Shown: one piece after another, positions 6,001 through 34,185 of the stretch
Layout: each line of letters begins with the position of its first letter
Position numbering within the stretch: position 1 is the stretch's first letter
Program-made: the position numbers and the translations under genes
Notes under the pieces: generated by a model
What the model was told of the DNA's origin: nothing
Seen by the model: only the letters and a program-made list of their open reading frames with translations
The model's database searches: none
Assembly (NCBI GenBank): GCA_001724265.1
Contig: MEDY01000337.1
Span: 1-34,540 of the forward strand
DNA length: 34,540 nucleotides
Source of the DNA: Rhizaria sp. SCN 62-66
Taxonomy: Eukaryota
Direction of reading: 5' to 3'

Positions 6001-9000
6001 CGGGAGGTGCTCCGACGCGAGCCTGCTGTGGGCCCCGCGGGCCCGGTCCGTCCACTCGCTGTTGTGGCGGGCCACCGCGGCGGGCTCGGCGGCGCGCCAG
6101 CTGTCCAGCGCGCGGCGGCTCGTGCGCGGCTGCCCCGCCAGCCACAGCCCGTGCAGGTTGCGGCTGTACGTCACGGCCGCGGGCACTAGCTGCGCGGACA
6201 CGTTGGCGTGGTTGCAGCGGCGGAAGCGTGGCGGTTCGGCCGCTAGCACCCAGTCCTGGTCGAAGCGCAGGAAGTAGTGCCCATTGCGCGGGTCGCGGCG
6301 CAGCGCGCGGTCCTGCTCCTCTTCGGCGGCCACAGCGGCCAGCGCGGCCGTGTAGCGCGCGTACTCGGCCGCCTCGCGCCGCGCGCGGGCCGCCGCGCGC
6401 TCTGCGTCGCCGCAGTCGTCGCTCTCGCTCTCGCCGCTGTCGTGGCCAGCGAGGGGCGGCGCATCGCCGGAGAGGAAGTCACCGTTAGCCCTCCGCTCAC
6501 CGTCGCTGCCGTCATGGTTGCTGTCGGACGCAAGCGCGCTCTCGGCGGCCTCGGCGAGCGCGCGCAGGTGGTGCGCCAAGCGGGCCTCACGCTGTCGCTC
6601 GCGCTCGGCGCGGCTGTTGTGCGCGTACCCGTAGCACTCGTACACGCACTCGCCGGTGCTGCCGTCGAGCACACTGAACACGCCCGAGTCCACCGCAGCC
6701 CCGATCTCACCGCTGCCATCTGCGCTGTGGGCGCTGTAGGCAGCGTTGGCGGCGTGCGCGTCGTAGAGCGGGACGCGCGCGCCCCAGGCAAAGGCGCTAA
6801 GCGCGTGGAGGTGAGTGTCGCCGCTGATAAAGGGACACGTCTGCGCACAGTCGCTCTCGCCCTGGTCCTGCGTGCGCCAGTAGAACTCGCGGCCCCACTC
6901 AGCTTCACTCTCGCTCTCACTAAACACGCTACCTTCATTGCTGTCCTTGGCGTCGGCGCCAGTTGCCGAGTCAGACTTTCCGGCCTGCTGCTCCTGCTGC
7001 TGGTACTCGAGCTGGCGGTCTGCGCGGCGATCTGCGCTGCGGCGCGCGCGCACGTGCCAGGCGGCCGAGTCCGCGACAGGCCGCGCGCGGAGCCGCAGCG
7101 CTGCGCACGCCGCGTCGAGCCCACCGTAGAGCGCGGCCGCAGACTCCGCGCCCAGCGCCGCCTTGTAGCGTGAAAACAGGCCTGCCGCAGAGTAGGCGCC
7201 GGGCGGGGCCTGCGACTTCAACTGCGACTGAGACTGACTGTGAGCGGTGTCGTTCGAGGTTGCGGTTGTGGCAGCAAGAGTGAGCGGGGCGGGGGGCACC
7301 ACGGTCTCGAGCGCGGCCGCGAGCAGCAGCAGGGTAAGCGAACGCGCCAGCCGCCCGCAGAGCTGGCCCTGCAGGTACGCCGTGGCTTCGATGCTGTGCG
7401 CCAGCTCCGCCAGCTTGTCCAGCGTAACTGCATTCAGGCCAGCGCCAGCGCCAGAGCCAGTGCTAGAGCTTGACTCAGTGGTGTTTGTGCTGTTGCTGTT
7501 GATGGATGCAGAGAGGGCAAGGAAGTTAAGCCGCGTGAGGTTGGCGTTCCGTCTAAGATAGGCCGCCTCTTCGTAGAACTCGGCCAGCTCGTCGCCCGCG
7601 ACAAGCACGTTGCCGCGCCCGTCGGTGATCACGGTTTGAACGTTGTCCTTCGCCTTCGCGCTCGCAATCGGGCTGTTGTTTGCAGTGGTTGCGCTAGCGC
7701 TGGCGTCCCTATTGTCTTTATGCACCTCGTTGGGGCTGAAGAGCGTGATGGCGTTGTTCTTGGCCGTGTACATATGCGACATCAGGCTCGCGGACGGCTT
7801 AACTTTGGAGGCACTGCGCGCAGTCGCTGCGCTCTTGCTCTCGCTCTTGCGGGGCGTCCCAGTGCTCCTGCTCGCGCTGGCCTCAACCTCCGCCTCCGAG
7901 TCAGAGCAGGACTCGCTCTCGCCCTCGCTCTCCTCTGCACCCGCCACACCTGCAGCCTGTGAGCCCGTCACCGTCCCACTCTGCGCATCACTCTGCGCCT
8001 GCGCCTCCGGGTGCGCGCGCAGCCAGTCGTCGCCGTTGACGCCCGGGACGCCGGCGCGCACGAGCTCGAGCAGGAGCCGCTTGCGGAGCGCGGTGGCGTC
8101 TCGCTGGAGCTGCCCCAGCGCCGTGACGGCTGCGTGCAGCGCCGCGGGCGTCAAGAACAGCAAACCGGGCGCCAGCACCGGCAGCGCAAACCCGCGGGCC
8201 GCGGCGGGTGCGGCGCCGCGCGAGACGGGCCCGCCCGCCGCCGTCGCCGCCGCGGGGTCGTCGTTGGCCTGCGGCTGGTCGGCGAAGGGAAAGAAGCGGC
8301 CGTGCGCGGTGAGGGTGGCGATGGCCAGCTCCGTGTGCGCGCGCGCCGCGCGGTCGCCCAGCGCGCCCGCGGCAGCCGCCACGCGCGCAGCGACGCCCAG
8401 CCGGAACTCAAGCTCGCTCACAAGCCCACCGTGCGCAGCCGCAGAGTCGGCCGCTTCGCCATCGCTGTGCGCGGTGGTGCTGTGGCTGTTGTTGTAGTTG
8501 GTGAGCTCCGCTGCGGCCTCGGTGAGCGCGTCGCCCTCGACCAGTCTAAGGGCCTGCTGTAAGTGCCCCACAGCCCGCTGCGCCTCCGCCGCGTCGCGCG
8601 CCCGCTCGCCGGCAGTGGGTGCCACGGGCAGCGCAGACACGCCGTCCGCGCTGGCGGCCGTGGCGTGGCGGCTTAGCTTCCGCAGCGCGCGGGCGGCGTG
8701 ACGCAGGCTGCGGCGCAGCTTCTGCTGCTGGCTCTCCTGCAGCTGCATCGACGCACTGCTGCTGCTGTTCGTGATGTCGCTGCCACTCGTGCCGTTGATC
8801 TCAGCAACGCTCGGGATGACGACCGTGGTGGCGGCGCCCGTGATCTGCGCCCGCGCCGCGGTGAGTGCGGCCGCCGAGGCGAGGATCTGGTCCAGGAAGT
8901 ACCGCGTGTGCCGCGACACGTTGTGGCTATCAGTACCCGCCTTACCAGCAGTACAAGTCGCGCCACTGCTGCCCTCAGCCGCAACCGCGCCGTCACTGCC

Positions 9001-10842
9001 AGTCTCACTGCCGGTATTGGAGTGGCAGCGCGCCTGCGCGCGCGTCTCCCGAGCGAGCACGGCAGGCAGCACTGCGTCCACGACTGCGCTCAGCGCGGCC
9101 AGCCTTGGCGCGAGCCCGCGCGCCACGGCGTCAAGCGCGGCCGCGTTCTGCGCCAGCACGGCCCCCGCGGCGCGCAGACCGCGACGGCGCGGGCCGGCCG
9201 TGTGCCGCCAGAGCGCCAGCCCGCCCGCGACGGCGCGCTCCACGGCCGCCGCGAGCGGCAGCGTTTGCTGAGGAAGATCGGAGTCGCTCGCGGTGGCGGC
9301 GGTGCTGCTATTGAGGGCGGCGTAGAAGCTGTCGTTCATGCTCAGGTTGCAGTAGCTCGCGCCGCTCATGCTAGCGCTGGCGTTAATGTTGTGGGGCAGG
9401 GCGCGGCCCTGCTCGGCGGCGGCCACAACCCGCGCCAGCGACTGCGCGCGGCGGTCCAGCGCGCGACACGCCACCGCCACACTCACGGGCACAGGGGCCG
9501 CAGCAGGCGCGGCCACAAGCCGCTCGACGGCAGCCGCGGCCTCGGCCAGCGCGCCGGAGTCGAGTCGGGCCTGCAGCGGGGACAGCGCGCTGCGCATCAG
9601 GGGCACCGTGAGCTCGGTGCTCGCTGGTGCAATGACGGTCGAGTCATTCTCTGCCTCGGCATCAACCTCAGCCTCCACGTCAGTGTCAGTGTCATTGTCA
9701 GCCTCAGCGTTAACGTCGCCGCTGTCGCCAAGGCGGCGGAGGGCGATGTTGCCGAGGACGATGTGGGAGAGCAGGTACACCTCGGCGTCCACGCTCACGC
9801 CCGGTGGCAGCAGCGGGGGCTCCGTCGCCGCTGTAGTCGTCGCCGCAGTCGTCGTCGCAGCGGCAGAGGCAGCGGAGGCAGCGGGGGCAGCGGCAGTGGC
9901 AGCGGGAGCGGGAACGCTGGCGCTGCTGCCGCTCATATCAGTCGCATGCTCGGCGTCCCTGTCATTCGCCACACTGTGTGTGTCACCATAGGCGCCGTCG
10001 TTGTGACCGTGGGCGCCCTCGTTGTGACGACGGGCGCCCCAGCCCCTCGTCGCGCGCAGCGGCACGAGCGGCGCGGCCTCCTCGGGGTGCGCGCGAAGGT
10101 AAGCCGCCTCGGCCTGCTCGCTAGACACGCTCGCGAACGACTCGGTGCTCCCACGGGCCGCGGTCTGACCGCCGTGGCCGTGGCCGTGAGACTGCGACTG
10201 GAGGGCCCGCGCCTGTCTGCGCGCCTCTGCCCGCGCCAGCGAGCGCGCACGCTGGGCCTGCTCGCGGTCGCTGCGCTGTTGCTGGAGCAGCTCACACTCC
10301 TCGGCGTCGGTGTCATTGTAGCCCTCGCCGTCACTCTCGCCCATAGCCACGTCCTCCGCGTCAGAGTCGGCGTTTGCGGTTGCAGCAGCGTTGGTGTTGT
10401 TGCTGCGAGGCTGCTGCTGCTGTTGTTCGGCGCCGAGGGTGTCGCTGTGGAAGTCCCTCATCTGCCGCGCCACAGCCTGCGAGGCCAGGTGCGCGTGCAT
10501 CGCGCCGTGCCGCAGTGTGCCCACGCTCACAGCGTCCAGGGTGCGGCCCACGTCCTCGCCGTTGACGTCCGTGTTGTTATCGTCGTCGGTGCGGACGGCG
10601 TGGGGGCGCGGCGCGGTGTCGAACCGGTCGCGCGCCGGGATGGCGTGCAGCGGCAGCAGCGGCACCGCCACGGAAGAACCGAGGCCAGCCACCGCGCCGA
10701 GGCCGAGCGCAAGAGACGGGACGGGAGCGCCCGGACTGGTACTGGCCACAGGAGCAGCGTCCGTGTAAATGGTGTTGAGGTTGGCAGCGTTGCTAGGGCT
10801 GGGACGGGGGCCTGAGCCGGAGCCGCGCGGAGAGTGCGACAT
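1..10842 (-). CDS. Giant uncharacterised protein (about 3570 aa inside the window, 3'-partial) with a long C-terminal Ala/Glu/Arg coiled coil
   Basis: ATG at 10842 (MSHSPRGSGSG). Exon 1 is 10842..3891, followed by a phase-1 GT-AG intron 3890..3761. Exon 2 continues in the frame of ORF 1710..3920 (EQ-D-PLRETMARQAAE). Near 1935 the coding-like frame shifts and continues as AAEAEALARQRDGLGAELAALAAARQGEEAQ...AEAEERDRAR to base 1; no stop was noticed in that frame. No family recognised. Confidence 0.8.
3761..3890 (-). other. Spliceosomal intron (130 nt, phase 1) of the giant gene
   Basis: Minus strand reads CAAG|GTGCGA...AT-rich...TTCATTCTTTCTCACAACCAG|ACCCT. Splicing gives codon G+AC (Asp), joins the two long ORFs in frame and removes the TAA at 3880-3882. 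Confidence 0.85.
4813..4902 (-). repeat. Five tandem 18-bp coding repeats encoding SPQ(H/Q/R)G(V/A/L)
   Basis: Translation SPQHGV-SPQQGA-SPQQGA-SPQRGL-SPQHGV; the DNA unit CGCGCCTTGCTGAGGGCT is repeated with variation. Confidence 0.9.
5098..5139 (-). repeat. 12-bp coding repeat encoding SPYR-SPYR-SPYL-SP
   Basis: GACCGGTACGGC occurs twice in tandem on the + strand, plus a degenerate third unit. Confidence 0.85.
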
Positions 10843-11633
10843 GGCGCGCAAAAGAAAGCGAAAACTTAATTAGCGTGCACGCTGCAATATGTGTTAAGTC
10901 GTGTCGTTGAGGCTACGGCGGTGGCGCTGGTGAGGGCGAAAGAGGCCGAGGAACCAAAGGAGCCTGGTGCCGAAGCGGTCTTTGTGATGCCAGGAAAGGA
11001 TACAAGACTGTTAAACAAGAAAACAACTCGCGAAAGTCTTTGTCACTTTTGAGAAATAAGTATGAATACGTTTGTTTACGTTTCGATTGGTTGTGAGCGA
11101 GTAGGGAGAGCGAGAAAGGAAATCGTTGGAAGGTTGGTTAGGAATCGTAGCAGCGAAGGAACTTCATGGTCAAGGACTGCATAGAGCTCCGTCAATTTAA
11201 ATTAGAATTCACCTCAAGGTATTCCCGCCAACAATACACCTTAATTCATAATTATAGTTCCTTAGACATGCTTGCAGCGCACACTTGACACTTTTTTCTT
11301 ATAAGAGTGACATTGTTCCAACGGCTAGCAAAATTGTTGCTCGTTCGCTGCCACTGCAGCTGCAGGTTCTCAAAAAAAGACTTGGGCGCCAAATCGGCCT
11401 TCCTAGACCAGTCATATCTCTATAAACCGTTCGTCAATTCTAATGAAGATATGACATCCAAGATTTATTACACCACCAATCTATAATATTTGAATGCGAC
11501 ACCTTAAGCTAACTTTGTTCCTGTCTATTTTCGAATCCCATCCCAGCCCACCCCACAGAGCTTTCCCTCCCTCTCGCTGACGCGTGACCCTCCTGCAAGC
11601 CCCTGCCTGCTGCTCAGCTGTCTGCCCGTCGTC
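10843..11633. promoter_or_regulatory. Divergent (head-to-head) promoter/5'UTR region between the giant gene and GCP4
   Basis: AT-richer spacer of about 790 bp between two outward-facing start codons. Contains E2F-like motifs TTCCCGCCAA (11222-11231) and GCGCCAAA (11386-11393). Confidence 0.7.
11008..11079 (-). other. Possible 5'UTR intron of the giant gene (72 nt)
   Basis: Minus strand GTAAAC...TTGTTTTCTTGTTTAACAG. No reading frame is available to test it. Confidence 0.35.
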
Positions 11634-14600
11634 ATGTCCCGCGCTGCTCTCCTGCGGGACGTGATCCTGGCACTCCACTGCGGCCCTTCAACCTCGGTCT
11701 CCTACACCTGGACCGCCCTCACCGCCCCCAGCAGCAACAGCAGCGACAGCAACATCACAAGCACTGCTGCTGCGGTCGTTCCAGCTGCTGACAAAGCCAC
11801 TACGAATGTGGCTGCGGCTGCTGCTGGCTCGCTTGCCGGCCCTGTGGCGGCCGGTGACGGCGACGTGATCGTCGCGCGCGTCCCCAGCGGCTACCACCTC
11901 TCGCCCTCCGTCCCCGCTCACAACACAACCCCTAACAGCACTCACTCAAATAACGCTGCAACTGCTGCTACTGCTGTCTCTCCCCCGGGGTCCGCGCTGT
12001 CGCCCGCCGAGCACCACGTGCTGTTGGCCGCGCTGGATGCCGCCTTCCTGGCGCACCGCCTCGAGTGCTTCGTCGCGCGCTACGGTAACCCCGACCCCGC
12101 CTCCTCACTCTGCGCCAAGTCACACGCGGGCGCCGGGCCGCTGAGTCTGGCCGAGGCGGACGCGCTGTGCGCAGGCGCATGGTCCCTGCGCCACGCGTTA
12201 TCCGCTCACAGTCACTCCTCCTCACACAGGCACAGCCACTCAAACTCCGGCTCTGTCTCTGGCTCTGGCACTGGTTCCGTCTCTGGCTCCGGCTCCGGCT
12301 CCGTGCGGCTGCCGACGCCGCCCCGCGTGCGCCCCAGCCCTGCGCTGGCAGCCTTCTGCGCGGGTCTTACGCGCTACCTCGACCTCCACTACCGCCCCGC
12401 GGTCGCCTCCCTGCTCGCGTTGCTGCCGCGCCTCGCCCCCGCCACGCTCTCACACAGTAATCCCAGCAGCAGCAGCAGTCTCCGCCGCAGCAACCCCAGC
12501 AGTCTTTACAGCAGCAACCGCAGGAACAGTAACAGCACGAGCAGCAGCGCAGTGTTCGAATCGGCGTCGTACTTTTTCGGTCCCGCGCTCGCGCAGACCG
12601 GCGCCGTAGCGCGCGCCCTGCTGCCGCCACTGACCGCGCTCGTCGCCCTGGCCAGCGCGGTGGTGGCCCCCGCAGCGCCCGTCGCCGCGCTGCTGCGCGC
12701 GCGCCCCGCGCTGCTCCCCGTCGCGCGCCGCGGTCTAAGTGCCTCCCGTGTAAGTACCGCGGTGGGCGAGTGCTGGCGGCGGCCGCTGCGCGGGCTAGCT
12801 ATCGTACAGAGCATCCATGACGCGGCCGCTCTGCTCCCGCTGCCCGCGCCCAGTGTGGGGGGCAGCGTGGGCGGTGTGGGCGGTGTGGGCAGCGTGGCGA
12901 GTGCGGGTGGGGCTGTGCACTGCGTGCTGCTGAGCGTGGAGACGGCGTTCATCACGCAAATCGCTCTGCTCTGCAGCCGCAGCAGCAGCAGCAGCAGCAA
13001 CGGCGACGGCAGCATTGTCAATAGTAGCAATCACTGCGTCGCTAGTGGGACTAGTTTGGGGTACTTACACGGGGTAAGTACCGGCGGCAGTGCGAGCGTG
13101 GACGTGGTGGCCGCAGCCGACCCGTGGGGAGAGTTGTTCTTCGCCCAGAGTCACGCAAACGCCCACCACGGTCATGGCCACGGCCACGGCCACGGTCACG
13201 GTCAGTTGGCTGCGCACAGGTACCTGAGTGGCAGCAGCAACAACGCAGTGTACGACAGCAACATTACCAGCCGCAACACCGACGGCGACGACAATGACGC
13301 CGACGACGACGCCGATGATGACGACGACGACGACGACGACGATAGCGACTACAGCGGCGTCGTCAGCAGCAGCAGCAGCAGCAGCCGCGGCGGCGACAGC
13401 AGCTTCCACCGCGGTGCGCTGGCCCGCCTGCAGGCCTTGATGCCGCCAGGCACTCTGCACGCCGCCGCCGCGCTCGCCGCCGCGCCCGCCGCGCCGCGCC
13501 TTCGCCCCTCGCGCCTGCCCTTTGCCACCGGCGGGACAGTCACGAGTTCCATCCCGAGTGTTGGCGTAGGCTCCGCGAGCGCGGCGGTGGTGGCGGGCGC
13601 GGCGTCGCTGGTGGTGCCTTTCGCGGCGGCCACGGCGCTGACCGACATCGTGGCGGCGCAGTACTGGCTCACGGTCCTCGCGCCGCCCCCGTCCTCTTCT
13701 GCTATATCGGCCACTGGGCATGGCCACTCTGCGGCTGCGGCGGCGGCCTTTGCGGCGGCTGCGTTCGCGGCCGTGGCCCGTGCGATCCGGGGCGTCACGG
13801 ACCCCTTTGCGCTGCCGCAGCTGCTGCTCTATAGCCAGGATGCGGGCCATAGTAGGGACGCGGGGGTGCGGGCGTGGCTGCGCGCGCTGCTGTGGGCGCC
13901 CGCGGGCGCGGGCATGGGCGAGGTCGCCGCGTGGGCCGACGCGGTGTCCGCGGTCTCCAGCATCATCACAGCTGACGACTGCGCTGCGAGCGGGAAGCTG
14001 TGCGGACTGCTGGGCATCACTACTGGCCACGCTGACGGCAGCGCGCTCAGTCAGCAGCAGCAGCAGCAGCAACAATTGCGTCTACTCCGGTCGATGCCCT
14101 CTGACGCTGTGCTAGCTCGCGTCATCGCGCACGGCCGCGCGCTATGCTTCTCTGCGGACGCCAATCTCAGCAATATCCAGGGCAATGTCGCCGGTACCGA
14201 CAGCGCGGCCAGCAACAGCAACAGCAATATGCTCGTGCCTGTATCTGGCCCAGGCTTTCCCGCCGACTCGAACCCCGCCGCCGCCGCTGATGCTGCTGCT
14301 GCTGCTGCTGCCGACGCGGCCGCAGTATCGGTGTCGGCTGCCGTATCGCTGTCGCCGCTGCGTCTGGTGCGACTTAACTTCCTGTGGCGCGCCGTGGCGG
14401 CTCTGCGCGCCGACGTCTCGCGCGCGCTGCTGACGCCGGAGCACTGCGCGCAGCAGTCGCTCTCTGACTACGGCGATGCTGACGGACAGCTATCACTGTC
14501 GCGGCCGCAGTCGCAGCGGGTGTTCTTCAGCCAGCAGACGCGGTGGCTGCTCGCCGGCGTCCGCGCGCTCGCGCCCCAGTCTAAATATCCAATTAGCGCT

Positions 14601-17600
14601 CGTGGCGTGACTCCGTCTGGCTCAGTGCCGCGCCCTCTGGTGCCCCTGGGTTACTCGAACGCTGCCCCTAGCTCTGACGGCGCAGGCTTGTCTGCGCGCG
14701 ACTGTGGGCTGGCCGCGGCAGTGCTGTTGCTGCAGCGCGTGGCGTTCTGCGGCGAGGGCGCGCTCTGGCAGGCCTTCCTCGCCGCCGCCACCACCGCTGA
14801 CCACGCCGGCACCGGCGTCAATACCGGCGGCGGCAAGGGCGGCGGCGACGGTGACGGGAGCGCGGGGGCGGCGCTCGCAGCTGCGGCGGCTGCGGCGTAC
14901 GCGGCGGCCATCACGACCGCCGCCGTGACCGACGAGACGCACACGCGCGGTGGCGGCAGCTCTGGCGCCGGCGCGAGTTTAAGTGCCTCCGGCGGTGTAA
15001 GTGGGTCTGGGGTAAGTACCTGGGCGCGGCTGGCGCGGATACTTAGCGTCGAATGGGAGAACGCGCTGGCCCTTACATCCAACACGCTGACCCTTACACC
15101 CGCAAGATGTGCACTTAGCGCGCATGCGAATGACAACGGCAACTGCAGCGGCAACGGCAGCGGCAGCGGTGCCGACAGCCCTCGTGACGCAGCGAGCGCG
15201 GCGGCCGAGGCGCGCTACCAGGCCCTGCTGGCGCAGACGGCGCTCACGGTCACGCTGCCCACTGTCGTCTACCCCGGCTTCGCGCACGCGGACTTCCTCA
15301 TCCCGCCGCCCACTTACACCGCTCCAAGTGCCCGCAACAGCGGCAGCGCGAGCGGCCCTCGCAGTACATACAGCGGAACCCGCGGGGGCGCGTTCCGCTC
15401 GCCGCCGCTGCTCACGGTCGTCGGCAGCGGCGCCCACAGCCCCCGCAATGGCGTGCTCAGTCTCGCCGCCGCGGCCCACGCGCGCCGCCGCCGCCTGCCA
15501 CTGCCTCCGTCACCGCACCCGCCACAGTCTCCCAGCAGCAACAGCAGCGGCCACGGCGGCTACGGCGTCTACAACGTTGCAGAGCCCTCGCTGCTGGGCG
15601 TGCGGGTGAGCGCAGGGCTGCTTACCGTGCCGCCGCGCCGCTTCTCGCTGCGGCGCCAGCTCACGGTCACCGCCGCGCTCGCGATGCCCACGGTTACCAC
15701 GGTCACAGCGCCGCACTCAGTCACCGCGGGCGCCGCGGGGGGCGGGCTAAGGGTCCCCTTGGCCGGCGTCAGCGGGTTTGCCGTGCTACTGAGTGACTAC
15801 TTGCCGATGGCCACCCCCGCGGCCGGGCCCGCGGTCGCGGCCGCACTCGGCGCCGCAAGCAGCCAGCTCAACTCCAACGCGGGCAGCGTGAGCGCGGGCG
15901 GCTTGGCGGTGCCGCAGGGCTTGACGGTGCCGCAGTGCTTGTTCGAGTACCCGCCCGTCGCCGGAGGCCTGCTCTCCGTCGAGTTCACCGCAGTCAGCAC
16001 TCCCCCAGGCCGTGTTAATAACGGCCGCCACAGCACCAGTCTCAGCAGCAGCGGCGCGGCTGTGTCGCTCACGGTCGCGGTGTTCCTGCGGCCCGCAGGC
16101 GGCAGCACTGCGCTGCCTCCGCACGGCGCCAGCGCCGGCAGCGGCAGCGGCAGCGCGCCGCGGCTGCTCGCGTCGGTGCTGGTGCCGCCTGGCGCGGCGC
16201 TCACGCAGGCCCTCACATCCCCGTCTAAGGGGTCACAGGGCGCTGAGGTGACCGTGAGCGCGGCCGGGGAGACCCTCACGGTCTCCTGGCGTCCGTCTGG
16301 TGTAAGTACCCCGCAGCAGCAGCAGAGTGTAAGTGGGTGGTTGGGAGTGCTTACGTGCGCGCTCCCCAGCCCCTTACACTGGCTCATCAGGGGCCCCGGT
16401 GCCACTGCGCATGTCACGCTCGCCGCCATCACCGCCACCACAACGGCGACAACGACGCATGCACCCGCTGCTAATGCTGCTGCTGCTGCGGCTGCTGATG
16501 AACTAAGTACCCCCTTAGACTGCGGCGGCGGCGTCGTGCTGCGCGCGCTGTCTCTGTCCGAGGCGCCCCTGCCGCCGCCGCCGCCGCTGCTGGCGCGCGC
16601 GGCGCTGGCCACGGTGGCGACGCTCGCGGACACCGCGCCTGCCGCGGCCCGCGCCCGCACGCGCGGCGCGCTCGCACAGCTTTTCGCGGCCGTGCCACCG
16701 CTTGACGGCGCCACGGCCCTGCTCTCCGTGCCGGCGCCGCCAGCGGACCAGAGCGGCGCCGTGGCCCAATCACACGGCGCAGCAGTGACCGTGAGCGCGG
16801 CGGCGGCGTGCGCGCTGGCGCCGGCGCTGCCGCTGCTGGCGGCCTTCGCGACGCCCGCGCCCGCGCCGCTGCCCGCCGCGGCGGCCGCCTTCGCCGCCGC
16901 GCTGCCGCTGCCGCCGCTGACGCTGGCGCTGCCACTGCCGGCGCTAGCGCCGCTGCTGCTGCCGCCGCAGACGCTGGCGCGCGTGGCGGCCGTGACCGAG
17001 ACGCTGTGTCGCTGGCAGCTCACGCGCGCGCGCGCCGCACAGGCCGCCGTCAGCGCGCGCAGGCTCGCGGCGGCCGTGGCGGCGGGCCGCGGAGCCGCGC
17101 GCGCGCTCTTGGCGGCCTCGTCGCCCGCTGCCGCACTTTACGCCTCCACGAGCAGCGCGGCCGGCGGCGGCAGCAGCAGGTTTGGCAAGTCTCGTCCGCT
17201 GTACGGCGCCGGCGCGGCGAGCGTCCCCGGTGGCGGCGGCGCCAGCGACGGCGGTGCGCCCCCGCAGTCGGTGTCGCTGCTGCTGCGGCGCTTTTGCGTG
17301 CTGCGGCACCGCGTGCACGCCTTCTTCTCCGTGCTTTGCAACCACGCGCAGACGGCCGTGGTCGCGCCCGCCTTTGCCGCGCTGCCATACCCGCTCCGCG
17401 ACAGCGTTACTCAGTCTACATCTTCGTCTCCGTCTGCGCTCACCGCCGCCGCCGCTGCGCCGGGGCTGTCGCTGGCGGGGCTGCGCGCGAGCCTCGAGGC
17501 GGGCGCCGTGGCCGCCGTGGAGGAGGGCTTGTGGGCGCGCGACGCCGCCGTGGCCGACGCGCTGCTCGCCGCGTGCGCCGCGCTCGACACCGCCGCCGCT

Positions 17601-17921
17601 GCCGTGGGCGCCGCCGCCGAGGCGGCCGAGGCGGCGGTGCGGCGTTGGGGCCGGGTCGCGGCCGTGTTTGCCGCGGGTGCGGGCCCGCTGGCGCACCGCG
17701 AGGCGGGCCGCGAGGAGGTCGAGGCCGCGGTCGCCGTGCTGGGCGCGGGCCACGCCGCCTGCGCGCTGCTCGTGCCGGCCGTCTCCGCGGCGGAAGCCGC
17801 CGCAGGGCGCGTCGCCGTCGTTGCCGCGCTCTGGCGTCAGCGCGCGCTGCTCGCGCCCGTCAAGGGACCCGCGGGCAGGGAGGCGCTCGAGAGCCTGCTG
17901 CTGCAGCTGGGCGCACTGTGA
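11634..17921 (+). CDS. TUBGCP4: Gamma-tubulin complex component 4-like protein (Spc97/Spc98 family), 2095 aa, intronless, highly expanded
   Basis: GCP4-like blocks in the expected order: LLRDVILAL (cf. MIHELLLAL), LSPAEHHVL, LAAFCAGLTRYLDLHYRPAV (cf. LRAFCTGLDSVLQPYRQAL), LRGLAIVQSI, DPWGELFF (cf. DQHEEFF), LLQRVAFCGEGALWQAF (cf. IIKDFYLLGRGELFQAF), LRHRVHAFFSVLCNHAQTAVVAPAFAAL (cf. LRNHMAFLVDNLQYYLQVDVLESQFSQL), and terminal LESLLLQL (cf. LAQLLLRL). Confidence 0.82.
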   Translation: MSRAALLRDVILALHCGPSTSVSYTWTALTAPSSNSSDSNITSTAAAVVPAADKATTNVAAAAAGSLAGPVAAGDGDVIVARVPSGYHLSPSVPAHNTTPNSTHSNNAATAATAVSPPGSALSPAEHHVLLAALDAAFLAHRLECFVARYGNPDPASSLCAKSHAGAGPLSLAEADALCAGAWSLRHALSAHSHSSSHRHSHSNSGSVSGSGTGSVSGSGSGSVRLPTPPRVRPSPALAAFCAGLTRYLDLHYRPAVASLLALLPRLAPATLSHSNPSSSSSLRRSNPSSLYSSNRRNSNSTSSSAVFESASYFFGPALAQTGAVARALLPPLTALVALASAVVAPAAPVAALLRARPALLPVARRGLSASRVSTAVGECWRRPLRGLAIVQSIHDAAALLPLPAPSVGGSVGGVGGVGSVASAGGAVHCVLLSVETAFITQIALLCSRSSSSSSNGDGSIVNSSNHCVASGTSLGYLHGVSTGGSASVDVVAAADPWGELFFAQSHANAHHGHGHGHGHGHGQLAAHRYLSGSSNNAVYDSNITSRNTDGDDNDADDDADDDDDDDDDDSDYSGVVSSSSSSSRGGDSSFHRGALARLQALMPPGTLHAAAALAAAPAAPRLRPSRLPFATGGTVTSSIPSVGVGSASAAVVAGAASLVVPFAAATALTDIVAAQYWLTVLAPPPSSSAISATGHGHSAAAAAAFAAAAFAAVARAIRGVTDPFALPQLLLYSQDAGHSRDAGVRAWLRALLWAPAGAGMGEVAAWADAVSAVSSIITADDCAASGKLCGLLGITTGHADGSALSQQQQQQQQLRLLRSMPSDAVLARVIAHGRALCFSADANLSNIQGNVAGTDSAASNSNSNMLVPVSGPGFPADSNPAAAADAAAAAAADAAAVSVSAAVSLSPLRLVRLNFLWRAVAALRADVSRALLTPEHCAQQSLSDYGDADGQLSLSRPQSQRVFFSQQTRWLLAGVRALAPQSKYPISARGVTPSGSVPRPLVPLGYSNAAPSSDGAGLSARDCGLAAAVLLLQRVAFCGEGALWQAFLAAATTADHAGTGVNTGGGKGGGDGDGSAGAALAAAAAAAYAAAITTAAVTDETHTRGGGSSGAGASLSASGGVSGSGVSTWARLARILSVEWENALALTSNTLTLTPARCALSAHANDNGNCSGNGSGSGADSPRDAASAAAEARYQALLAQTALTVTLPTVVYPGFAHADFLIPPPTYTAPSARNSGSASGPRSTYSGTRGGAFRSPPLLTVVGSGAHSPRNGVLSLAAAAHARRRRLPLPPSPHPPQSPSSNSSGHGGYGVYNVAEPSLLGVRVSAGLLTVPPRRFSLRRQLTVTAALAMPTVTTVTAPHSVTAGAAGGGLRVPLAGVSGFAVLLSDYLPMATPAAGPAVAAALGAASSQLNSNAGSVSAGGLAVPQGLTVPQCLFEYPPVAGGLLSVEFTAVSTPPGRVNNGRHSTSLSSSGAAVSLTVAVFLRPAGGSTALPPHGASAGSGSGSAPRLLASVLVPPGAALTQALTSPSKGSQGAEVTVSAAGETLTVSWRPSGVSTPQQQQSVSGWLGVLTCALPSPLHWLIRGPGATAHVTLAAITATTTATTTHAPAANAAAAAAADELSTPLDCGGGVVLRALSLSEAPLPPPPPLLARAALATVATLADTAPAAARARTRGALAQLFAAVPPLDGATALLSVPAPPADQSGAVAQSHGAAVTVSAAAACALAPALPLLAAFATPAPAPLPAAAAAFAAALPLPPLTLALPLPALAPLLLPPQTLARVAAVTETLCRWQLTRARAAQAAVSARRLAAAVAAGRGAARALLAASSPAAALYASTSSAAGGGSSRFGKSRPLYGAGAASVPGGGGASDGGAPPQSVSLLLRRFCVLRHRVHAFFSVLCNHAQTAVVAPAFAALPYPLRDSVTQSTSSSPSALTAAAAAPGLSLAGLRASLEAGAVAAVEEGLWARDAAVADALLAACAALDTAAAAVGAAAEAAEAAVRRWGRVAAVFAAGAGPLAHREAGREEVEAAVAVLGAGHAACALLVPAVSAAEAAAGRVAVVAALWRQRALLAPVKGPAGREALESLLLQLGAL
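13168..13386 (+). repeat. Coding microsatellite cluster: His-Gly repeat, poly-Asp (GAC)n and poly-Ser (AGC)n
   Basis: CACGGC/CACGGT repeats, a GAC run around 13320-13340 and an AGC run around 13365-13385, all in frame in GCP4. Confidence 0.85.
15265..16565 (+). other. Putative degenerate L-type lectin/concanavalin A-like beta-sandwich domain within GCP4
   Basis: Ordered beta-strand-like motifs: YPGFAHADF, LTVVGSGA, GVLSL, LTVTAAL, SGFAVLLSD, LSVEFTA, LTVAVFL, EVTVSAAGETLTVSW, VLTCALPSPL, AHVTLAAIT, VVLRALSLSE. Confidence 0.55.
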
Positions 17922-18308: not shown

Positions 18309-21300
18309 TCACACATTGTGCCTGTAGGAGCGCGCCCTCGCCACGGCCTCGCGCTCCCCAGGCGCCCACGAGCGCTCGAAAACGAGCATCTCCTTCTCGT
18401 CCTCGGAGTGCGAGTGGAAGAAGGGCGAACCCGCGGTCGGCAGGTAGCCCCACGCACGGAGGAACGGCTTGATTTCGCGCGCCACCGTGTCGAACACCAC
18501 GATGTACGTCGGGGCCAGCTCCACCGCCTTAATGACCCCACTTACGCCAGCGCCAGCGCCAGTGTTCGCCGCGGCAGGGCGGCACAGCGCGAGCGTGTGC
18601 GCGGACTTCATGCCCACCTCGTGCTTGTTGTCGGCGCTGTTGGCGCTTACGACACTGTACGCGCGCGACACAGCGCCCGCGAGCTGCAGCGACAGCGGGA
18701 CACGAGGCACATAGAGCCCGCCGTCGCCGTCGCCCGGCGCCGCGCCGCCCTCGCGCGGCCTGACTTCCGGCGCGGGCGGCCTGACTTTGAGTGCGAAGCG
18801 GAGCCGCGGGTCTTTCTCGATCGCCATCGCGTTGGCGGGCACGACGCCGCGCCAGCCGAGATGTCCGCATTCGCTCACACTGCCGTTACGAGTGTCTACG
18901 GCTGCCGCGGCCGCGTCGGCAGGGGACGGGGGCAGCCCGTAAAGCGCGAGCACGAGCGCGAGCGCATTGTCCTTCAGCAGGTTGGTCTCGGAGTCCTTGT
19001 TGTAGCCGTTCAGCATCGCACCGCCGCCGCTCTTGCCACCGCCGCCATGACTGCTGCCGCTGGTGCCGTCCCTGTTCGCGTGTGCGATGAGCGCGCCCGT
19101 ACTGGGGTCGAAGAGCGGCGCGCACTCGAGCTGCCGCAGCGCGACCCGCACCGTGACGCGCTGCTCGTACTTCGTGGTGGCACCCGTGACCGCGTGTTCC
19201 AGGCCGAGCCGCCTGCGCGCCGCGGCGGGGAAGTGCAGGAAGGAGCGATAGGGAGTCGTGTGGCACGGCAGCAGCAGCGCCACAGAGGCCGCCACCGCCA
19301 CGGCGTCGTACGCGGGCAGCGGCGGCGCGGCAGAGCGCAACAGCGCGGCCAGCGCGACGCTCGTGCTTCCGCTGCCTCTCGGCCTGCTGCCACTGCCGCC
19401 GCCGCTGCCGCCGCTGTTGTCGGCTGCGGCGTCGGCGCTGGCGTCGGCGCTGGCGGAGGTCTCGAGGAGCGCAAGCAGCGCCTGCTCCAGCTCCAGCTCG
19501 CTCATGCCCACGCCGATGCCGCCGCTCTTGCCGATCGCACTGTCACTGCCGCTGCCGCTGTCGCTGCCGCTGTCGCTGTCGGTGTGAGTGTATATCGGGG
19601 TGATGGTGACGCCCATGGGCAGAAGCTCGCTGGCGCCGCTGCTGCCCACATCGAGCTCCGCGTCGGCCTGGTAGTAGCGCCCAGCGCTGCCACCGCCACC
19701 GACCCCGACACCGCTCTCTCCGTCGCCGCTGCCGCTGCTGCTGCTCGCGGAGGTGAAGCGTCTGGCGACGGCGATGCCCGTGGCGGCCTCCAAGTGGCCA
19801 AGGCGCGAGACTACCGCGGCCGCGGCGGCCGCCTCGCCGCGCCGGCTGATCGCGTTGGCGACCGCGGACATCGCCGCGATGGGCGCGGACTGGTGCCAGA
19901 GGCCGAAGTAAGCCGCGGCGGCCCCCGACGCGGCCGCCACGAGCAGCAGCAGCGCCGCGAGGGACGCGCGCGTGACGTAAGGCCCCGCCGCGCCCGCCAG
20001 CGCCGCCGCCGCCGCCGACGCGAGCGAGCCGAGCAGACTGGGCTCATTGCCGCAACCGCTACCGCTGCCGCTACTGTTGCGCGCGTGGCTGTGGGGATGC
20101 GGGCGCGAGGCCTGCGGACGGGGACGCAGGCGCAAACGCTGCTGCTGGCTACGTGCTGCGTCTTTGCTCACATCTGCTGCAGTTGCGGCGGCGGCGCTCT
20201 CTGCGTTAGAGCGCGAGCGCGAGCGGACGCGGATAGGTCGCTTCGAGGGGCTGCCACCCATAGTGAAGGGGCGGGGGCGGGGAGGCTCATTGGCTGCGGC
20301 CTTAACAGCGCTCGTATTTGTAGTTCTGACAAAAAGGGCATCATTCGTCGCAGATGCAAACGACTCCAGCGTCGGGGGTGCAAGCGCAGACGCATTCGCA
20401 CTCGCGGGCGTCGGTGTCGCAGTCATCGAGGCTAGCGAAGACGACGACGACGACGATGACGAGTGATAGAGAGAGACAAAGCCGCTGGCGCTCTTGGTTC
20501 CCTGGCTCGCGCGCGCGCTGCCGCTTCCCGCAGCAGAAACGGTGGCGGGGGCGGGAACAGTGAACGACACCGGCGTGGATTCAACAGCAGCAGTTTTGCC
20601 GAGAGGACGCGGTGTACTCACGAGTGCACTGTTATGCCGCGGCGTGCTCGTAATGGCGGCACGCGTGATCATCGCGGACCTGCGCTCCGCTGCCCGCGCC
20701 GCCGCAGCCACGTGCGCGTCCGCGCTCACGGTCAGTGCCCCCGCCGCTCTTGACTTCGACTGCGCTCTCGCCTTAGGCAGTGCCGCAACGCCGTCCTCTG
20801 TTTGATCATAACCGTCATCATCTTCATCGTTATCATCCTCATCAGCGTCATCCTCATCGCCATCGTTGTCGAAATCAAGCGCAGCCACCGGCTCGTCCTC
20901 GCCGACGCCGCCAGCGCCCGCGTGTTGCGCGTGGTGTGAATGCGAGTGCGCGCGCGGGGAGCTGGACGGCGAGTGCGCCGCCCACAGGTACGCGCCCGCG
21001 GGCGTGCGCGTGACGGCGCCGCGGGGCGTGGCCGCGAACGCAGTACGAAACCGCGCCACCGACACCGCGGCCGAGGCCGCGGCCGAGGCCGAGGCTGAGG
21101 GCGTCGCGCCCCTGACAGGCGCAGTCGCAACGGCCGCGGCAGCGGCAGTGGCGGTGGTTGCAGTCGCTCTGTGCGCAGGCGAGCCCGCGGCGACGAGCTG
21201 CATCGCCGTCGCGGTCTGGCTGGGGTTCCGACTGTGGCTATGGCTATGGCTGTGAGTCGGGGAAGGGGAGCTGGTGGCCACGGTCAGGTGCTTGAACCCA

Positions 21301-23219
21301 GGGGTCGAGGGTGCGGCTTGACTTTGACTACCGACGTGATATTGGGGATCTAAGTAAGGCGCAACGCTGCTGGCTAATGGCGTCCCATGCGTGTACGTGC
21401 CCACAACCCCGGGGCGGCGGCTTAACTTCCCGCCGTGCTCATGACTATCGCCAGCGTCAACGTCGACATCGACAGTGATGGGCCTCAGGTTCGAGTTGTT
21501 TGCCCTATTGCAAGCCCCCTTCGCGCTGCTGTTGCTCGCGGCCGGAGTCTCGTTGAGAAAGCGCGCACAGACGCCGTAAACACAGTTGAACGCACGCAAG
21601 CACGACGACAGCAACGCCGAGCGGCTCTGCGGCTTGTACTGCAGCTGCTGCATTTGCTGTTGCTTGAGCTGTTTCAGCTGTTGCTGCTGCTGCTGGAGCT
21701 CCTTACGTTGGACGAAGCGCACGCAGCGCGCAATAGCGTAGCCGCTAACGGCCATCGCGGGCGGCAGCGAGGCCAGGATGAAGCGGAACTCCTTGTGCGC
21801 GCTGAAGCTGGCCACGACCGCCGGCCACAGCGCCGGCAGCAGCAGCCACGCGCTCGGCCGCCCACGGTCACTGCCACGCCCACGGTTACTGCCACAGCCA
21901 TCGCCACAGTCGCTACCGCTTACGTCCACTGCGTCGTCGTCGTCGTCAGCGCCGGCAGAGCTCGAGCTCGAGAAGGCGTTGCCGTTACTGCAGCCGCTGT
22001 CGTTGTGAGGGAGCAGCAGGAGCGCAGAGCCGAGCAGGACGAAGGGGAGGAAGGCCCCGGTGACTGTGGGCAGCGCGGCCGTAAACATCCAGTGCCAGGG
22101 GTGCGTGCCGTAGAGCCGCGCAACATCCTGGACCACGTTGAGGCGGAAGAAGTTGAGCCAGGAGGCGGTGAACACGCCGTAGTACGCGCGGTCCACGGCG
22201 AGGCCCAGAGTAATGACCGCGATGACAGCCGGGATCGCGCTGGCCAGCAGCAGGCGGCGGCGGGCGGCGGCGGTGGGCAGCGTGGCGAGGCGCAGCAGCG
22301 CGAGGGGCGCCCAGAGCAGCGCGGCCGAAGGCCTGAGCAGCGTCGCCAGGCCCATGAGCAGCAATGCCAGCAGCGCCTGCGGGGCCCGCGAGCGGAAGGA
22401 CTGGGACCGCGCGCGGGCTTGCAGCGCGAGGCAGGTGACCAGATCGGCGGCCGCGGCGCCGTTATCGTCGTCGTCGGCGGCGACGTTGTCGTCGATGCTG
22501 CTGCTGCTACGGACGATGGTGAGGGCGTTCTTACCGTTGTTGTTAAGCTCAGCACTCGCACCAGCACTCGCACTGAGGTGGCCACAGTTAGCTTCGGCGG
22601 AGCCCGGCGCGGCGAAGCCCCAGTAGTAGAGCGCAGCAACGGTGAGCGCGGCCTCTGCGCTGTTGGCGAAGGGCCGCACGTAGGCATACGTGCCGAACCA
22701 GGTGATGAGCTGGCCCACCAGCGCCCACTTAGCCGTCAGCACGTCCCCGCGCGCCCAGATGAGCGCGAGGCGGTACAGGTAGTAGTCGCCCAGGGCCGCA
22801 ACGCAGGCCTGCAGCGCGCGCGGCGCCCAGGCCACGACGGCGGTGCCGTCCAGCCCGAGCGCGGCCAGCACCCAGTAGAGCGCGGCCGTGGGCGCGGGGT
22901 GCAGGAAGGAGCGGATGCGCGCAGGCGGGAGCCATTCCCAGGTGAGGTAGCCCTCGCCAAAGACGGCGGCGTAGGCCACCTCCTGGTTCTGCCAGAACTC
23001 GTCCGGGCTGAAGGCCGTGCGCACGAGCAGCAGTCCGGTCAGCAGCCGGTATGCGAGGGCGAAGAGCAGCACGCGGGACGGCCGCCACGGCGTCTCGGAG
23101 AAAAACTGGGGTCGATATATCGCGGTGGCACAAAAATGCGAGGAAATGTTAGCAAGCAATTTACACAGAAGGCAAATACAGGTTTCTTGTGGTGACATGG
23201 TTTGACGTACGAAATTCAT
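18309..23219 (-). CDS. PIGB: GPI mannosyltransferase 3 (PIG-B/Gpi10, glycosyltransferase family 22), about 1601 aa after splicing
   Basis: Family motifs: RTAFSPDEFWQNQEVAY, GYLTWEW, IRSFLHP, RPFANSAE, YGTHPWHWMF, HKEFRFI, HQSAPI, LLPCHTTPYRSFLH, LRQLECAP, FFHSH, plus multiple hydrophobic TM segments. Model: exon 1 23219..23211 (MNF), exon 2 23105..18309. Confidence 0.93.
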   Translation of the reverse strand: MNFVRQTMSPQETCICLLCKLLANISSHFCATAIYRPQFFSETPWRPSRVLLFALAYRLLTGLLLVRTAFSPDEFWQNQEVAYAAVFGEGYLTWEWLPPARIRSFLHPAPTAALYWVLAALGLDGTAVVAWAPRALQACVAALGDYYLYRLALIWARGDVLTAKWALVGQLITWFGTYAYVRPFANSAEAALTVAALYYWGFAAPGSAEANCGHLSASAGASAELNNNGKNALTIVRSSSSIDDNVAADDDDNGAAAADLVTCLALQARARSQSFRSRAPQALLALLLMGLATLLRPSAALLWAPLALLRLATLPTAAARRRLLLASAIPAVIAVITLGLAVDRAYYGVFTASWLNFFRLNVVQDVARLYGTHPWHWMFTAALPTVTGAFLPFVLLGSALLLLPHNDSGCSNGNAFSSSSSAGADDDDDAVDVSGSDCGDGCGSNRGRGSDRGRPSAWLLLPALWPAVVASFSAHKEFRFILASLPPAMAVSGYAIARCVRFVQRKELQQQQQQLKQLKQQQMQQLQYKPQSRSALLSSCLRAFNCVYGVCARFLNETPAASNSSAKGACNRANNSNLRPITVDVDVDAGDSHEHGGKLSRRPGVVGTYTHGTPLASSVAPYLDPQYHVGSQSQAAPSTPGFKHLTVATSSPSPTHSHSHSHSRNPSQTATAMQLVAAGSPAHRATATTATAAAAAVATAPVRGATPSASASAAASAAVSVARFRTAFAATPRGAVTRTPAGAYLWAAHSPSSSPRAHSHSHHAQHAGAGGVGEDEPVAALDFDNDGDEDDADEDDNDEDDDGYDQTEDGVAALPKARAQSKSRAAGALTVSADAHVAAAARAAERRSAMITRAAITSTPRHNSALVSTPRPLGKTAAVESTPVSFTVPAPATVSAAGSGSARASQGTKSASGFVSLYHSSSSSSSSSLASMTATPTPASANASALAPPTLESFASATNDALFVRTTNTSAVKAAANEPPRPRPFTMGGSPSKRPIRVRSRSRSNAESAAAATAADVSKDAARSQQQRLRLRPRPQASRPHPHSHARNSSGSGSGCGNEPSLLGSLASAAAAALAGAAGPYVTRASLAALLLLVAAASGAAAAYFGLWHQSAPIAAMSAVANAISRRGEAAAAAAVVSRLGHLEAATGIAVARRFTSASSSSGSGDGESGVGVGGGGSAGRYYQADAELDVGSSGASELLPMGVTITPIYTHTDSDSGSDSGSGSDSAIGKSGGIGVGMSELELEQALLALLETSASADASADAAADNSGGSGGGSGSRPRGSGSTSVALAALLRSAAPPLPAYDAVAVAASVALLLPCHTTPYRSFLHFPAAARRRLGLEHAVTGATTKYEQRVTVRVALRQLECAPLFDPSTGALIAHANRDGTSGSSHGGGGKSGGGAMLNGYNKDSETNLLKDNALALVLALYGLPPSPADAAAAAVDTRNGSVSECGHLGWRGVVPANAMAIEKDPRLRFALKVRPPAPEVRPREGGAAPGDGDGGLYVPRVPLSLQLAGAVSRAYSVVSANSADNKHEVGMKSAHTLALCRPAAANTGAGAGVSGVIKAVELAPTYIVVFDTVAREIKPFLRAWGYLPTAGSPFFHSHSEDEKEMLVFERSWAPGEREAVARARSYRHNV
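23106..23210 (-). other. Intron 1 of PIG-B (105 nt, phase 0, stop-free)
   Basis: Minus strand TTC|GTACGT...TGCTAAC (branch point, 23154-23148)...CCCCAG|TTT; AT-rich relative to the exons. Confidence 0.75.
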
Positions 23220-23965
23220 TGTGGCGTGCTGGCACGTGATTATATAGTGATGAAAGAGTGTCAGTGAGTGTCCTCGATTGGAGCAGGCCCAGAGAGCGAC
23301 AGGAAGGTGTTGAGGAGCTGTGACTAGCGCTACCGCAAAGAGACGTGTGTTTAGCGCTGCGAAAAAACGCAAACACTCACAGAGAGCCTTGTTGTGATGT
23401 CTGTTGACTGGCTGGGCGAGGTTAGGTCGGAGCGAAGAAAGAGATTCGAGAGGGCTCGCCGACAACCCTGCAGAAAAATGGGAAGATGCAGGACGACGAG
23501 GACAAAATTTGTATATTCAATATGTGAACATATTTTGTAATCTAATACAATTGATATGAGCGCATTGACGTTCAGAATCTTGTGTAGATAGAAGTGAAAG
23601 TTGACCGACTCGAAGTGACTGTGGGTCAACAGCCCAACGGCCAGCTCGCCCGTTTGCGGCGGGAAATCGCGTGAACTCCCGCTTTATATTATGACTGTCG
23701 TGTAACGCTAATTGAGCTGAAATTACTTTGAATAGATTTTATGTGTTCTCAAATGTCTATATATGTTATTTATGTTTTACTTCCGATTGTAGATCCAGGG
23801 TATTGAGCGTGCGCAGTAGCCCGTCTTTTGCCCTCTCTTCCCTCCCTCCGCTCCCGCCTTCGATTAGCCCTGCCCTGCTCGGCAGCTCGGTCACTTTTCC
23901 CCAACAGAGCGACTCATTTCCTCAAAGCGTGCATTGCCCACGCGTATTCCCCCGTGTTAACAGTC
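23220..23965. promoter_or_regulatory. Divergent promoter/5'UTR region between PIG-B and Nup133
   Basis: AT-richer spacer between outward-facing starts. A central GC-rich patch contains GGCGGGAAA (23658-23666; reverse complement TTTCCCGCC, E2F consensus). Confidence 0.7.
23229..23380 (-). other. Probable upstream (5'UTR) intron of PIG-B (152 nt)
   Basis: Minus strand GTGAGT donor, CACTGAC branch-like motif and GCCAG acceptor 9 nt before the ATG. Confidence 0.5.
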
Positions 23966-33564: not shown

Positions 33565-34185
33565 TGCGGGCGGTAGGGCGCAGGTGCCAGTCGCGAGCTT
33601 GGGTGACACAGCAACGGGGGCTGGGAGGGAGATGGAAAGGGGAGACGAAGACTCTGACGTCGGCAGGATAGAACGAGGCGAGGATTCAGTTTGTGAGAAA
33701 ATAGGTAAAAACGAGAATGAAATAAATACACATGTCGTGCATAAGCAATAAAACATTACACGATTATGTCTGTGAGAGGCAAGATGCGCATCGCTAAATT
33801 GCCCCGAGTCAGATCTTGTTCGCCCCCGCAGCCAGCCACGAAAATCCTTTGCATCGTCATCAATTCACATTACTTCCCACGTCATTCGGAACAACAGTGC
33901 CAATTCAGCATACAGATTTGCAGACATATAATGTAAGATGAATACACTCTTATAATTTGCTTTGTATTTCTCAGGCGACCCATTATGTCGCCATAATCTT
34001 CAGTATCATTCGTCAAGCCTCTCGCCGAATATTTCCACCATCACGTTTTCCACCATCATCAACCACCTACCAGGCCAAAACACAGCAACACACCATGATA
34101 AGCGCACAGACAGACAGAGAGACGATGAGCCAACAGTGACCATTAATCCCTCGCGCAACTGCCTTAAACGCCAACCGCAGCACAC

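Follow-up and report, generated by a model that had tools for sequence, protein, structure and literature searches.

The GCP4 subunit of gamma-TuRC, the gamma-tubulin ring complex, of stramenopiles, alveolates, and rhizarians (SAR) likely carries, inserted within its GRIP2 domain, an L-type lectin domain that may serve as a metal-free docking surface on the ring. This insert has likely been inherited by the GCP4 copy in the stretch of DNA analyzed here (the window, 34,540 nucleotides, the whole of contig MEDY01000337.1 from Rhizaria sp. SCN 62-66). Insert-bearing GCP4 is a real variant, widespread in SAR and apparently undescribed.

The host gene, a probable TUBGCP4 orthologue, occupies positions 11634..17921 on the plus strand of the window as a single open frame of 2095 aa enlarged by low-complexity loops. 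The genome (34.9 Mb, with coding regions of ~70% GC) encodes proteins padded with Ala/Ser/Gly/Gln-rich loops. This padding, which touches other genes too, is the lineage's only peculiarity and makes the window protein three times longer than human or vertebrate GCP4. The GRIP1 region (aa ~6 to 1020, 11649..14693, with approximate borders) consists of helical blocks with long low-complexity loops between them. GRIP2 starts at 14694..15260, where alignments place a GCP4-type motif at aa ~1036 to 1049 and a beta-strand at aa ~1203 to 1208 that leads into the insert. The remaining GRIP2 (aa 1761 to 2095, 16914..17918), placed by alignment and by a block at aa 1889, comprises the returning beta-strand and the helical bundles that would bind gamma-tubulin; hhalign puts the same segment there weakly (E = 0.15).

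The original prediction had called this protein a gamma-TuRC subunit, GCP4. We scored it on a GCP4-core profile built as a gap-tolerant chain of 17 automatically chosen blocks. The window protein scores -86, compared with -187±6 for 12 shuffles and -156±10 for 12 block shuffles; three other long open reading frames of the window score -154 to -190, and the same genome's well-conserved GCP2 scores +132. GRIP1 and GRIP2 are thus recovered in order with a z of ~17 against shuffles (0/12 as high) and ~7 against 30-aa block shuffles (0/12). GCP4-core blocks in GRIP1 fall at aa 6, 120, 236, 383, 620, and 813, and since the first lies at residue 6, the window protein has no N-terminal extension, as in GCP4. 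Most conventional searches were silent: Pfam gave no match, to the Spc97/Spc98 family included, for the window GCP4 or five pieces of it; PDB sequence searches with it returned only tag-like and low-complexity matches; family-profile hmmsearch and hhalign found nothing significant; and neither a word-indexed homologue search with its GRIP2 end nor a related-locus scan gave a match. A GCP4 homologue used as the query against the genome detected neither the window GCP4 nor any other GCP4. In the ESM Atlas, aa 906 to 2095 matched a Spc97/Spc98-family cluster best (0.94, 193/256 features; 417 members, Oomycota commonest, 1041-aa representative), which at a recognition of 1955 is a lead only.

Elsewhere in the genome, genes assigned from their features as GCP2 (contig C175), GCP3 (C206), and a GCP6-like gene (C19) were located. 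The last (L014, positions 90-9050, plus strand) is read in frames of 1808 and 1177 aa with one stop between them, probably an intron or an assembly slip. A GCP5 family search of the genome found none, and its controls gave no signal either. The assignment of the window protein to GCP4 rather than GCP2, GCP3, or GCP6 is indirect: those genes are located elsewhere, the genome search turned up no other GCP4, and the insert site is shared. Together with the block chain and the lack of an N-terminal extension, this makes GCP4 the probable identity of the window protein, in a strongly diverged form swollen by low-complexity stretches. By orthology, it would bind gamma-tubulin and fill ring spokes 9 and 11.

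The window's insert (aa ~1210 to 1644, 15261..16565, plus strand) reads as a degenerate L-type (legume/ConA-like) lectin beta-sandwich, based on the strand chain, on alignments, and on the fold of the family. It has about 13 predicted strands, separated by Ser/Gly/Ala/Pro-rich loops, and is followed by an Ala/Pro-rich linker of ~117 aa (16566..16913, plus strand) from the last lectin strand to the GRIP2 return, far longer than its counterpart in homologues. Ten motifs cited in the original prediction were looked up, and all are present in one frame. From the left anchor at aa 1194 (15213), they run through a G-x-L-x-L strand at aa 1273 (15450), VSGFAVLL at aa 1379 (15768), VEFTA at aa 1449 (15978), VAVFL at aa 1481, AHVTLAAIT at aa 1592 (16407), and VLRALSLS at aa 1635 (16536) to the right anchor at aa 1762 (16917), all on the plus strand. 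The lectin-type motifs looked up are collinear, in the predicted order, in a single open frame. Two details needed adjustment. The ~430 aa that had been placed between the anchors correspond to the lectin-like part (aa ~1210 to 1644), and the gap from anchor to anchor is 554 aa with the linker included. The F-x-F-x-x-F with which the family insert opens aligns at V1211/Y1213/F1216, a few residues earlier than the predicted F..F.

Homologues were collected in two ways. A degenerate GCP4 motif retrieved 95 metagenome loci, many of them redundant. Their translations are of two kinds, one with a short loop and one in which the same strand leads on into lectin-like sequence. Of the 95 loci, 44 match the insert profile, 35 match the downstream GRIP2 alone, 12 match the upstream part alone, and 4 have no match. 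A profile built from eight carriers reaches 550 bits on GCP4 chains, compared with 165 on GCP2/3, 108 on GCP6, and 92 on GCP5, and breaks at human GCP4 residue ~419 when aligned with vertebrate PDB chains, which have no insert. The predicted location in a GRIP2 loop is thus borne out. The same profile was searched against 1.84 billion representatives, and 171 sequences were examined; 155 with both anchors were scored, 16 lack an anchor, and 40 further GCP4 rows, mostly fungal, lie outside the scored set. Loop length is bimodal, at 154 to 572 aa in 56/155 and ≤78 aa in 99/155 with none between; the sample is carrier-enriched by construction, so these fractions give no estimate of prevalence.

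Among 30 proteins looked up, the insert-bearing GCP4s that have a species name come from the oomycetes Peronospora belbahrii and Pythium insidiosum (stramenopiles), Vitrella brassicaformis (an alveolate), and Plasmodiophora brassicae (a rhizarian). These four species cover all three branches of SAR. Several AT-rich carriers appear ciliate-like. The insert is absent from the GCP4s of Spironema sp. (a hemimastigote), Chromosphaera perkinsii, Rhipicephalus, Didymosphaeria, and Escovopsis, and from loci that appear plant-like, green-alga-like, and choanoflagellate-like. The GCP4 of Phytophthora boehmeriae was considered as a non-carrier and rejected as a gene-model artefact, because the first ~25 insert residues are kept before the sequence jumps. 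The suggestion that similar fusions exist in other protists was therefore correct, and the description of the insert as lineage-specific was not: named members of all three SAR branches have it, as do many other protist GCP4s.

The fold of the insert was examined at the level of the family. Matches to PF00139 or PF18483 at E ≤0.001 occur in 14/53 carriers, and in 5/53 the score is at or above the PF00139 cut-off. All four named carriers are without a lectin match in Pfam, which makes the domain easy to miss. An AlphaFold2 model of Plasmodiophora GCP4 (pLDDT 92.5, pTM 0.89) was built from an alignment of 60 insert-bearing GCP4 rows that included no free lectin and excluded the window sequence. 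In it, the insert is all-beta (residues ~352 to 540) and lies between GRIP2 strands 346 to 350 and 550 to 554; the high pTM would fit a fixed pose of the insert on the GRIP body. Foldseek ranks GCP4 chains first for the model (E = 1.7e-23). When the insert was compared with L-type lectins by VIA-align, it matched the legume-lectin domain of M. jannaschii, ERGIC-53, Emp47, an Entamoeba lectin-like domain, peanut lectin, and VIP36 with Z of 18.4 to 18.9 and rmsd of 2.3 to 2.9 Å over 169 to 181 residues; other ConA-like folds scored lower, at Z of 17.2 and below. The predicted structure supports the conclusion that the family insert is an L-type lectin beta-sandwich of ~190 to 260 core residues.

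The statistics for the window's own copy are weaker. A gap-tolerant block chain from 53 carriers gave z of 2.3 to 3.5 against residue shuffles over nine settings, with 0 to 1 of 40 shuffles reaching the score per setting. Against 15-aa block shuffles, z was 1.4 to 2.7 over nine settings, with 0 to 4 of 40 reaching the score. In a separate block-chain run, 0/100 and 2/100 shuffles reached it. The strand order of this copy alone thus appears to exceed chance, though modestly. With 16 blocks and a gap weight of 0.5, the optimal chain reproduces the originally proposed register, starting at the second strand and continuing through the final one. If block width is limited to 8 columns, the C-terminal half stays in place but the N-terminal half moves out of register. 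MAFFT behaves the other way round: in most runs it aligns the first 6 to 7 strands, whereas the placement of the C-terminal half varies from run to run. A local insert HMM (HMMER) was not significant on the window insert, with 56/300 shuffles as high, and Pfam and PDB sequence searches with the insert returned nothing. Single-sequence AlphaFold2 was uninformative (pLDDT 31, a few hairpins). In the ESM Atlas, the insert alone matched unnamed and SPRY clusters (0.79 to 0.84), and aa 906 to 2095 matched legume-lectin clusters (0.76 to 0.77) next after the Spc97/Spc98-family cluster; recognition was below 2300 for both queries, and the legume-lectin matches are leads only. Because its strands are collinear with the family and the orthologue has the insert at the identical site, we consider it quite likely that the window insert is homologous to the family insert and still folded. 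The predicted lectin-like beta-sandwich is thus established at the family level by the Plasmodiophora model, and it would extend to the window copy by its site and its collinear strands.

We examined the history of the insertion with a GRIP-core tree computed without the insert (46/56 carriers and 34/99 non-carriers, quick LG+G4, unrooted). Fourteen carriers group with Plasmodiophora in one starred clade, a second starred clade unites 26 with Vitrella and the oomycetes, and 32/34 non-carriers form one group at 93. Presence of the insert requires 5 changes on this tree, compared with 25.9 for shuffled labels, and at least 3 are forced by starred branches. A 604-aa GCP4 on an AT-rich contig (L069, positions 105-1916, minus strand) is sister to carriers and lacks the whole domain cleanly; it is a natural deletion, a clean loss beside carriers. 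The P0062 GCP4 is also cleanly without the domain. Two long-branch carriers, P0139 and P0166, are placed among non-carriers, and P0139 (ENA), whose insert has the most canonical lectin motifs of all GCP4 inserts, may be either a carrier from outside SAR or a SAR lineage that the tree misplaces. The simplest reading of the tree, though not proven, is a single early gain in SAR followed by losses. According to this reading, the sandwich would have been inserted between two GRIP2 beta-strands, most likely once, and all three SAR branches would have retained it, apart from some losses. The window copy would be the inherited domain, stretched to ~435 aa by low-complexity loops typical of its genome.

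Recent capture from the three free lectin genes of this genome was considered and set aside as unnecessary, because the insert site is shared across SAR. A free legume-lectin protein of this genome (L011, contig C125, positions 490-2790, minus strand) has its strands spread apart by low-complexity loops, which indicates that this genome pads lectin folds generally. Two frames of 4373 and 3769 aa (L009 on C79 and L010 on C59) encode a legume-lectin domain followed by filamin/Ig repeats and are likely giant surface proteins.

If the insertion is as old as this, it is a candidate for the kind of rare genomic change that informs deep eukaryote phylogeny, and it would give SAR a new molecular marker with which to test the placement of telonemids and other orphan lineages; no telonemid, haptist, or cryptist is among the named GCP4s compared here. 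The Rab1A paralogy is described as a rare genomic change common to stramenopiles, alveolates, and rhizarians (PMC2817417, consulted in part), and the GCP4 insert is likewise found in all three branches. The Rab1A change is a gene duplication, whereas the GCP4 change is a domain insertion represented so far by four named SAR species, with losses.

Human GCP4 (TUBGCP4, PDB 3RIP) has the same GRIP1 and GRIP2 and no N-terminal extension and is the best match of the family both by profile and by Foldseek. Where carriers have a folded beta-sandwich of 190 to 260 aa, a vertebrate-like GCP4 (a 669-aa homologue) has a 28-aa loop. The legume lectins (PF00139, PF18483), ERGIC-53/VIP36/Emp47, and the M. 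jannaschii protein (7exo) share the fold and strand order of the insert. However, L-type lectins are secreted or lumenal, whereas the insert lies within a cytosolic protein, has mostly lost the ligand residues, and shows 8 to 19% identity, a rare case of such a fold being re-used in the cytosol. GCP5 and GCP6 carry long insertions. These and the Spc98/Spc97 insertions are short or helical/disordered and belong to other subunits, in contrast to a captured globular domain in GCP4. The fungal Spc98/Spc97 GRIP2 insertions are likewise lineage-restricted additions to the GCP core, and that of Spc98 shapes the complex (PMC7658347, consulted in part). We found no description of a lectin or ConA-like domain in GCP4 in the literature, in which subscription journals were thinly covered, and the word "lectin" is absent from the main text of a 2026 preprint on gamma-TuRC evolution (10.64898/2026.08.03.742184). 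The architecture is latent in databases, since automatic annotation already assigns PF00139 within three insert-bearing GCP4s. The gamma-TuRC structures listed are those of vertebrates, yeasts, and C. elegans, with GCP4 taken as a bare GRIP core; if our reading is true, oomycetes, alveolates, and rhizarians have on their nucleation ring a surface that is missing in animals.

GCP4 is placed at gamma-TuRC spokes 9 and 11 in the available part of the same preprint (10.64898/2026.08.03.742184), so that each ring would carry two such domains. The gamma-tubulin pocket is mapped to GCP4 residues 515 to 536 and 617 to 632 (PMC3655011, consulted in part), and the domain would be clear of this binding surface, which sits further along GRIP2. 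The protein-interaction or anchoring role proposed originally is plausible, and we favor docking, ahead of a brace on neighboring spokes, a passenger, and a working lectin. In the mechanism we prefer, which has a little under an even chance of being right, the domain would offer a rigid, metal-free surface for protein docking and so tether the ring to an anchor at the microtubule-organizing center; candidate anchors would be the basal body, a rootlet, or a cortical site. A broader and somewhat more tentative version would have a single capture in the SAR last common ancestor producing a fixed gamma-TuRC module, whose two knobs at spokes 9 and 11 dock on SAR-specific anchors and possibly still read a cytosolic glycan in the best-conserved lineages.

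With the same origin and fold, the domain could instead brace a GCP5/GCP6 spoke or gamma-tubulin and so set the opening or closure of the ring. There is a precedent, in that the fungal Spc98 GRIP2 insertion is described as bridging to Spc97 and fixing the spoke angle (PMC7658347; PMC8099430; both consulted in part), although the fungal inserts are only 30 to 40 aa and may lie at another site than the GCP4 insert. The rigid pose suggested by the pTM, together with a signature of the family's own near the last strands (L 42, E/D 40, G 44, A 40, and G 50 of 56), would also suit a brace. However, most eukaryotes assemble the ring without the domain (99/155 scored GCP4s lack it), and L069, a close relative of carriers, lost it cleanly. 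We consider a brace rather unlikely and docking the better reading.

It is improbable that the domain is a functionless passenger, perhaps decayed in this genome to a largely unfolded loop. Fast divergence, with only a minority of carriers keeping a Pfam match, the clean absences in L069 and P0062, and the weak statistics for the window copy all point in that direction. Against this, the domain has been kept across three deeply diverged branches with a near-invariant core (W 49, F 49, G 50, and W 52 of 56 inserts), and the window copy has kept its alternating hydrophobic strands in order even as its loops have expanded.

The canonical ligand residues of an L-type lectin are an Asp that binds sugar and precedes the central-strand Gly, and Ca/Mn ligands consisting of a Glu, an Asp two residues on, and a His. 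Among the 56 inserts, Asp is present in the sugar column in at most 6 and is not among its four commonest residues. The metal columns have Glu in 30, the second metal Asp in 7, and His in 6. In the window copy, Ser and Thr occupy the two Asp positions, the metal His is absent, and the metal Glu alone is kept. The loss of sugar- and metal-binding acids that had been predicted is therefore mostly confirmed, and across the family the fold is conserved whereas the canonical sugar site mostly is not. These counts also bear on the possibility that the domain still binds carbohydrate in some lineages at least, such as an O-linked sugar borne by centrosomal proteins in the cytosol. P0139, P0069, and P0075 keep near-canonical Gly-rich and Glu-x-Asp/His segments, and the metal Glu survives in the 30 inserts noted above, but the other ligands are rare, the window copy has lost both Asp residues, and cytosolic calcium is low. 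We regard such binding as quite improbable.

The reading frame itself leaves very little room for an artefact. The insert has 0 in-frame stops over 434 codons, compared with 11 and 8 in the other plus-strand frames, its GC3 is 0.82 (0.79 to 0.91 in the flanks), and its codon-position GC is flank-like. Contigs from a polyA run, 98 to 99% alike, lie inside the insert (15345-15647 and 16159-16466) and in both flanks, and 4/6 differences within the insert are synonymous in this related run. The run may contain DNA, because DNA just upstream of the start codon is covered too; one contig, probably DNA, spans the 5' insert junction, and no RNA contig of this run spans either junction. Run X2 and the uncovered parts of run X1 were excluded as expression evidence. 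Joints listed in the RNA data were rejected, since they derive from repeats. A chance read-through of an intron or of an assembly artefact is a very unlikely account of the segment, given the open frame, the flank-like composition, the contigs within the insert and over its 5' junction, and the transcriptome-derived homologues that contain the insert (e.g., P0006), even with neither junction bridged by an RNA contig and a run that may hold DNA.

Several observations concern other genes. Rhizaria are described as carrying a polyubiquitin insertion (PMC6133090, consulted in part). Among five ubiquitin loci of this genome, no polyubiquitin monomer junction was seen; an additional Met-Ser opens three of the five and also a fourth, whose unit is divergent. 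The Met-Ser resembles the rhizarian insertion but, given the lack of a junction, offers no more than a hint of rhizarian affinity. One locus (L112, contig C681, ~1500-2100, plus strand) encodes a ubiquitin unit that contains an in-frame TAG and is joined to a C-terminal segment dissimilar to ribosomal tails; it is possibly a pseudogene or a mobile-element remnant. Within the window, a 2329-aa frame at 3880-10869 (minus strand) has no Pfam match, ends in a short Cys/His-rich stretch, and lies in divergent orientation to GCP4 across a lower-GC gap of ~0.8 kb. On the other side, a 1735-aa frame at 18309-23516 (minus strand) encodes an Alg9/PIG-B-like mannosyltransferase domain (PF03901, E = 6e-66) and, after it, a mostly low-complexity region of ~1100 aa. 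Two long frames at 24133-31628 (plus strand; 757 and 1567 aa) have no Pfam match and, judged by eye, presumably form one intron-split gene resembling the nucleoporin Nup133. At 32086-33864 (minus strand) lies a SNARE-domain protein (PF05739) that by eye is syntaxin-5-like.
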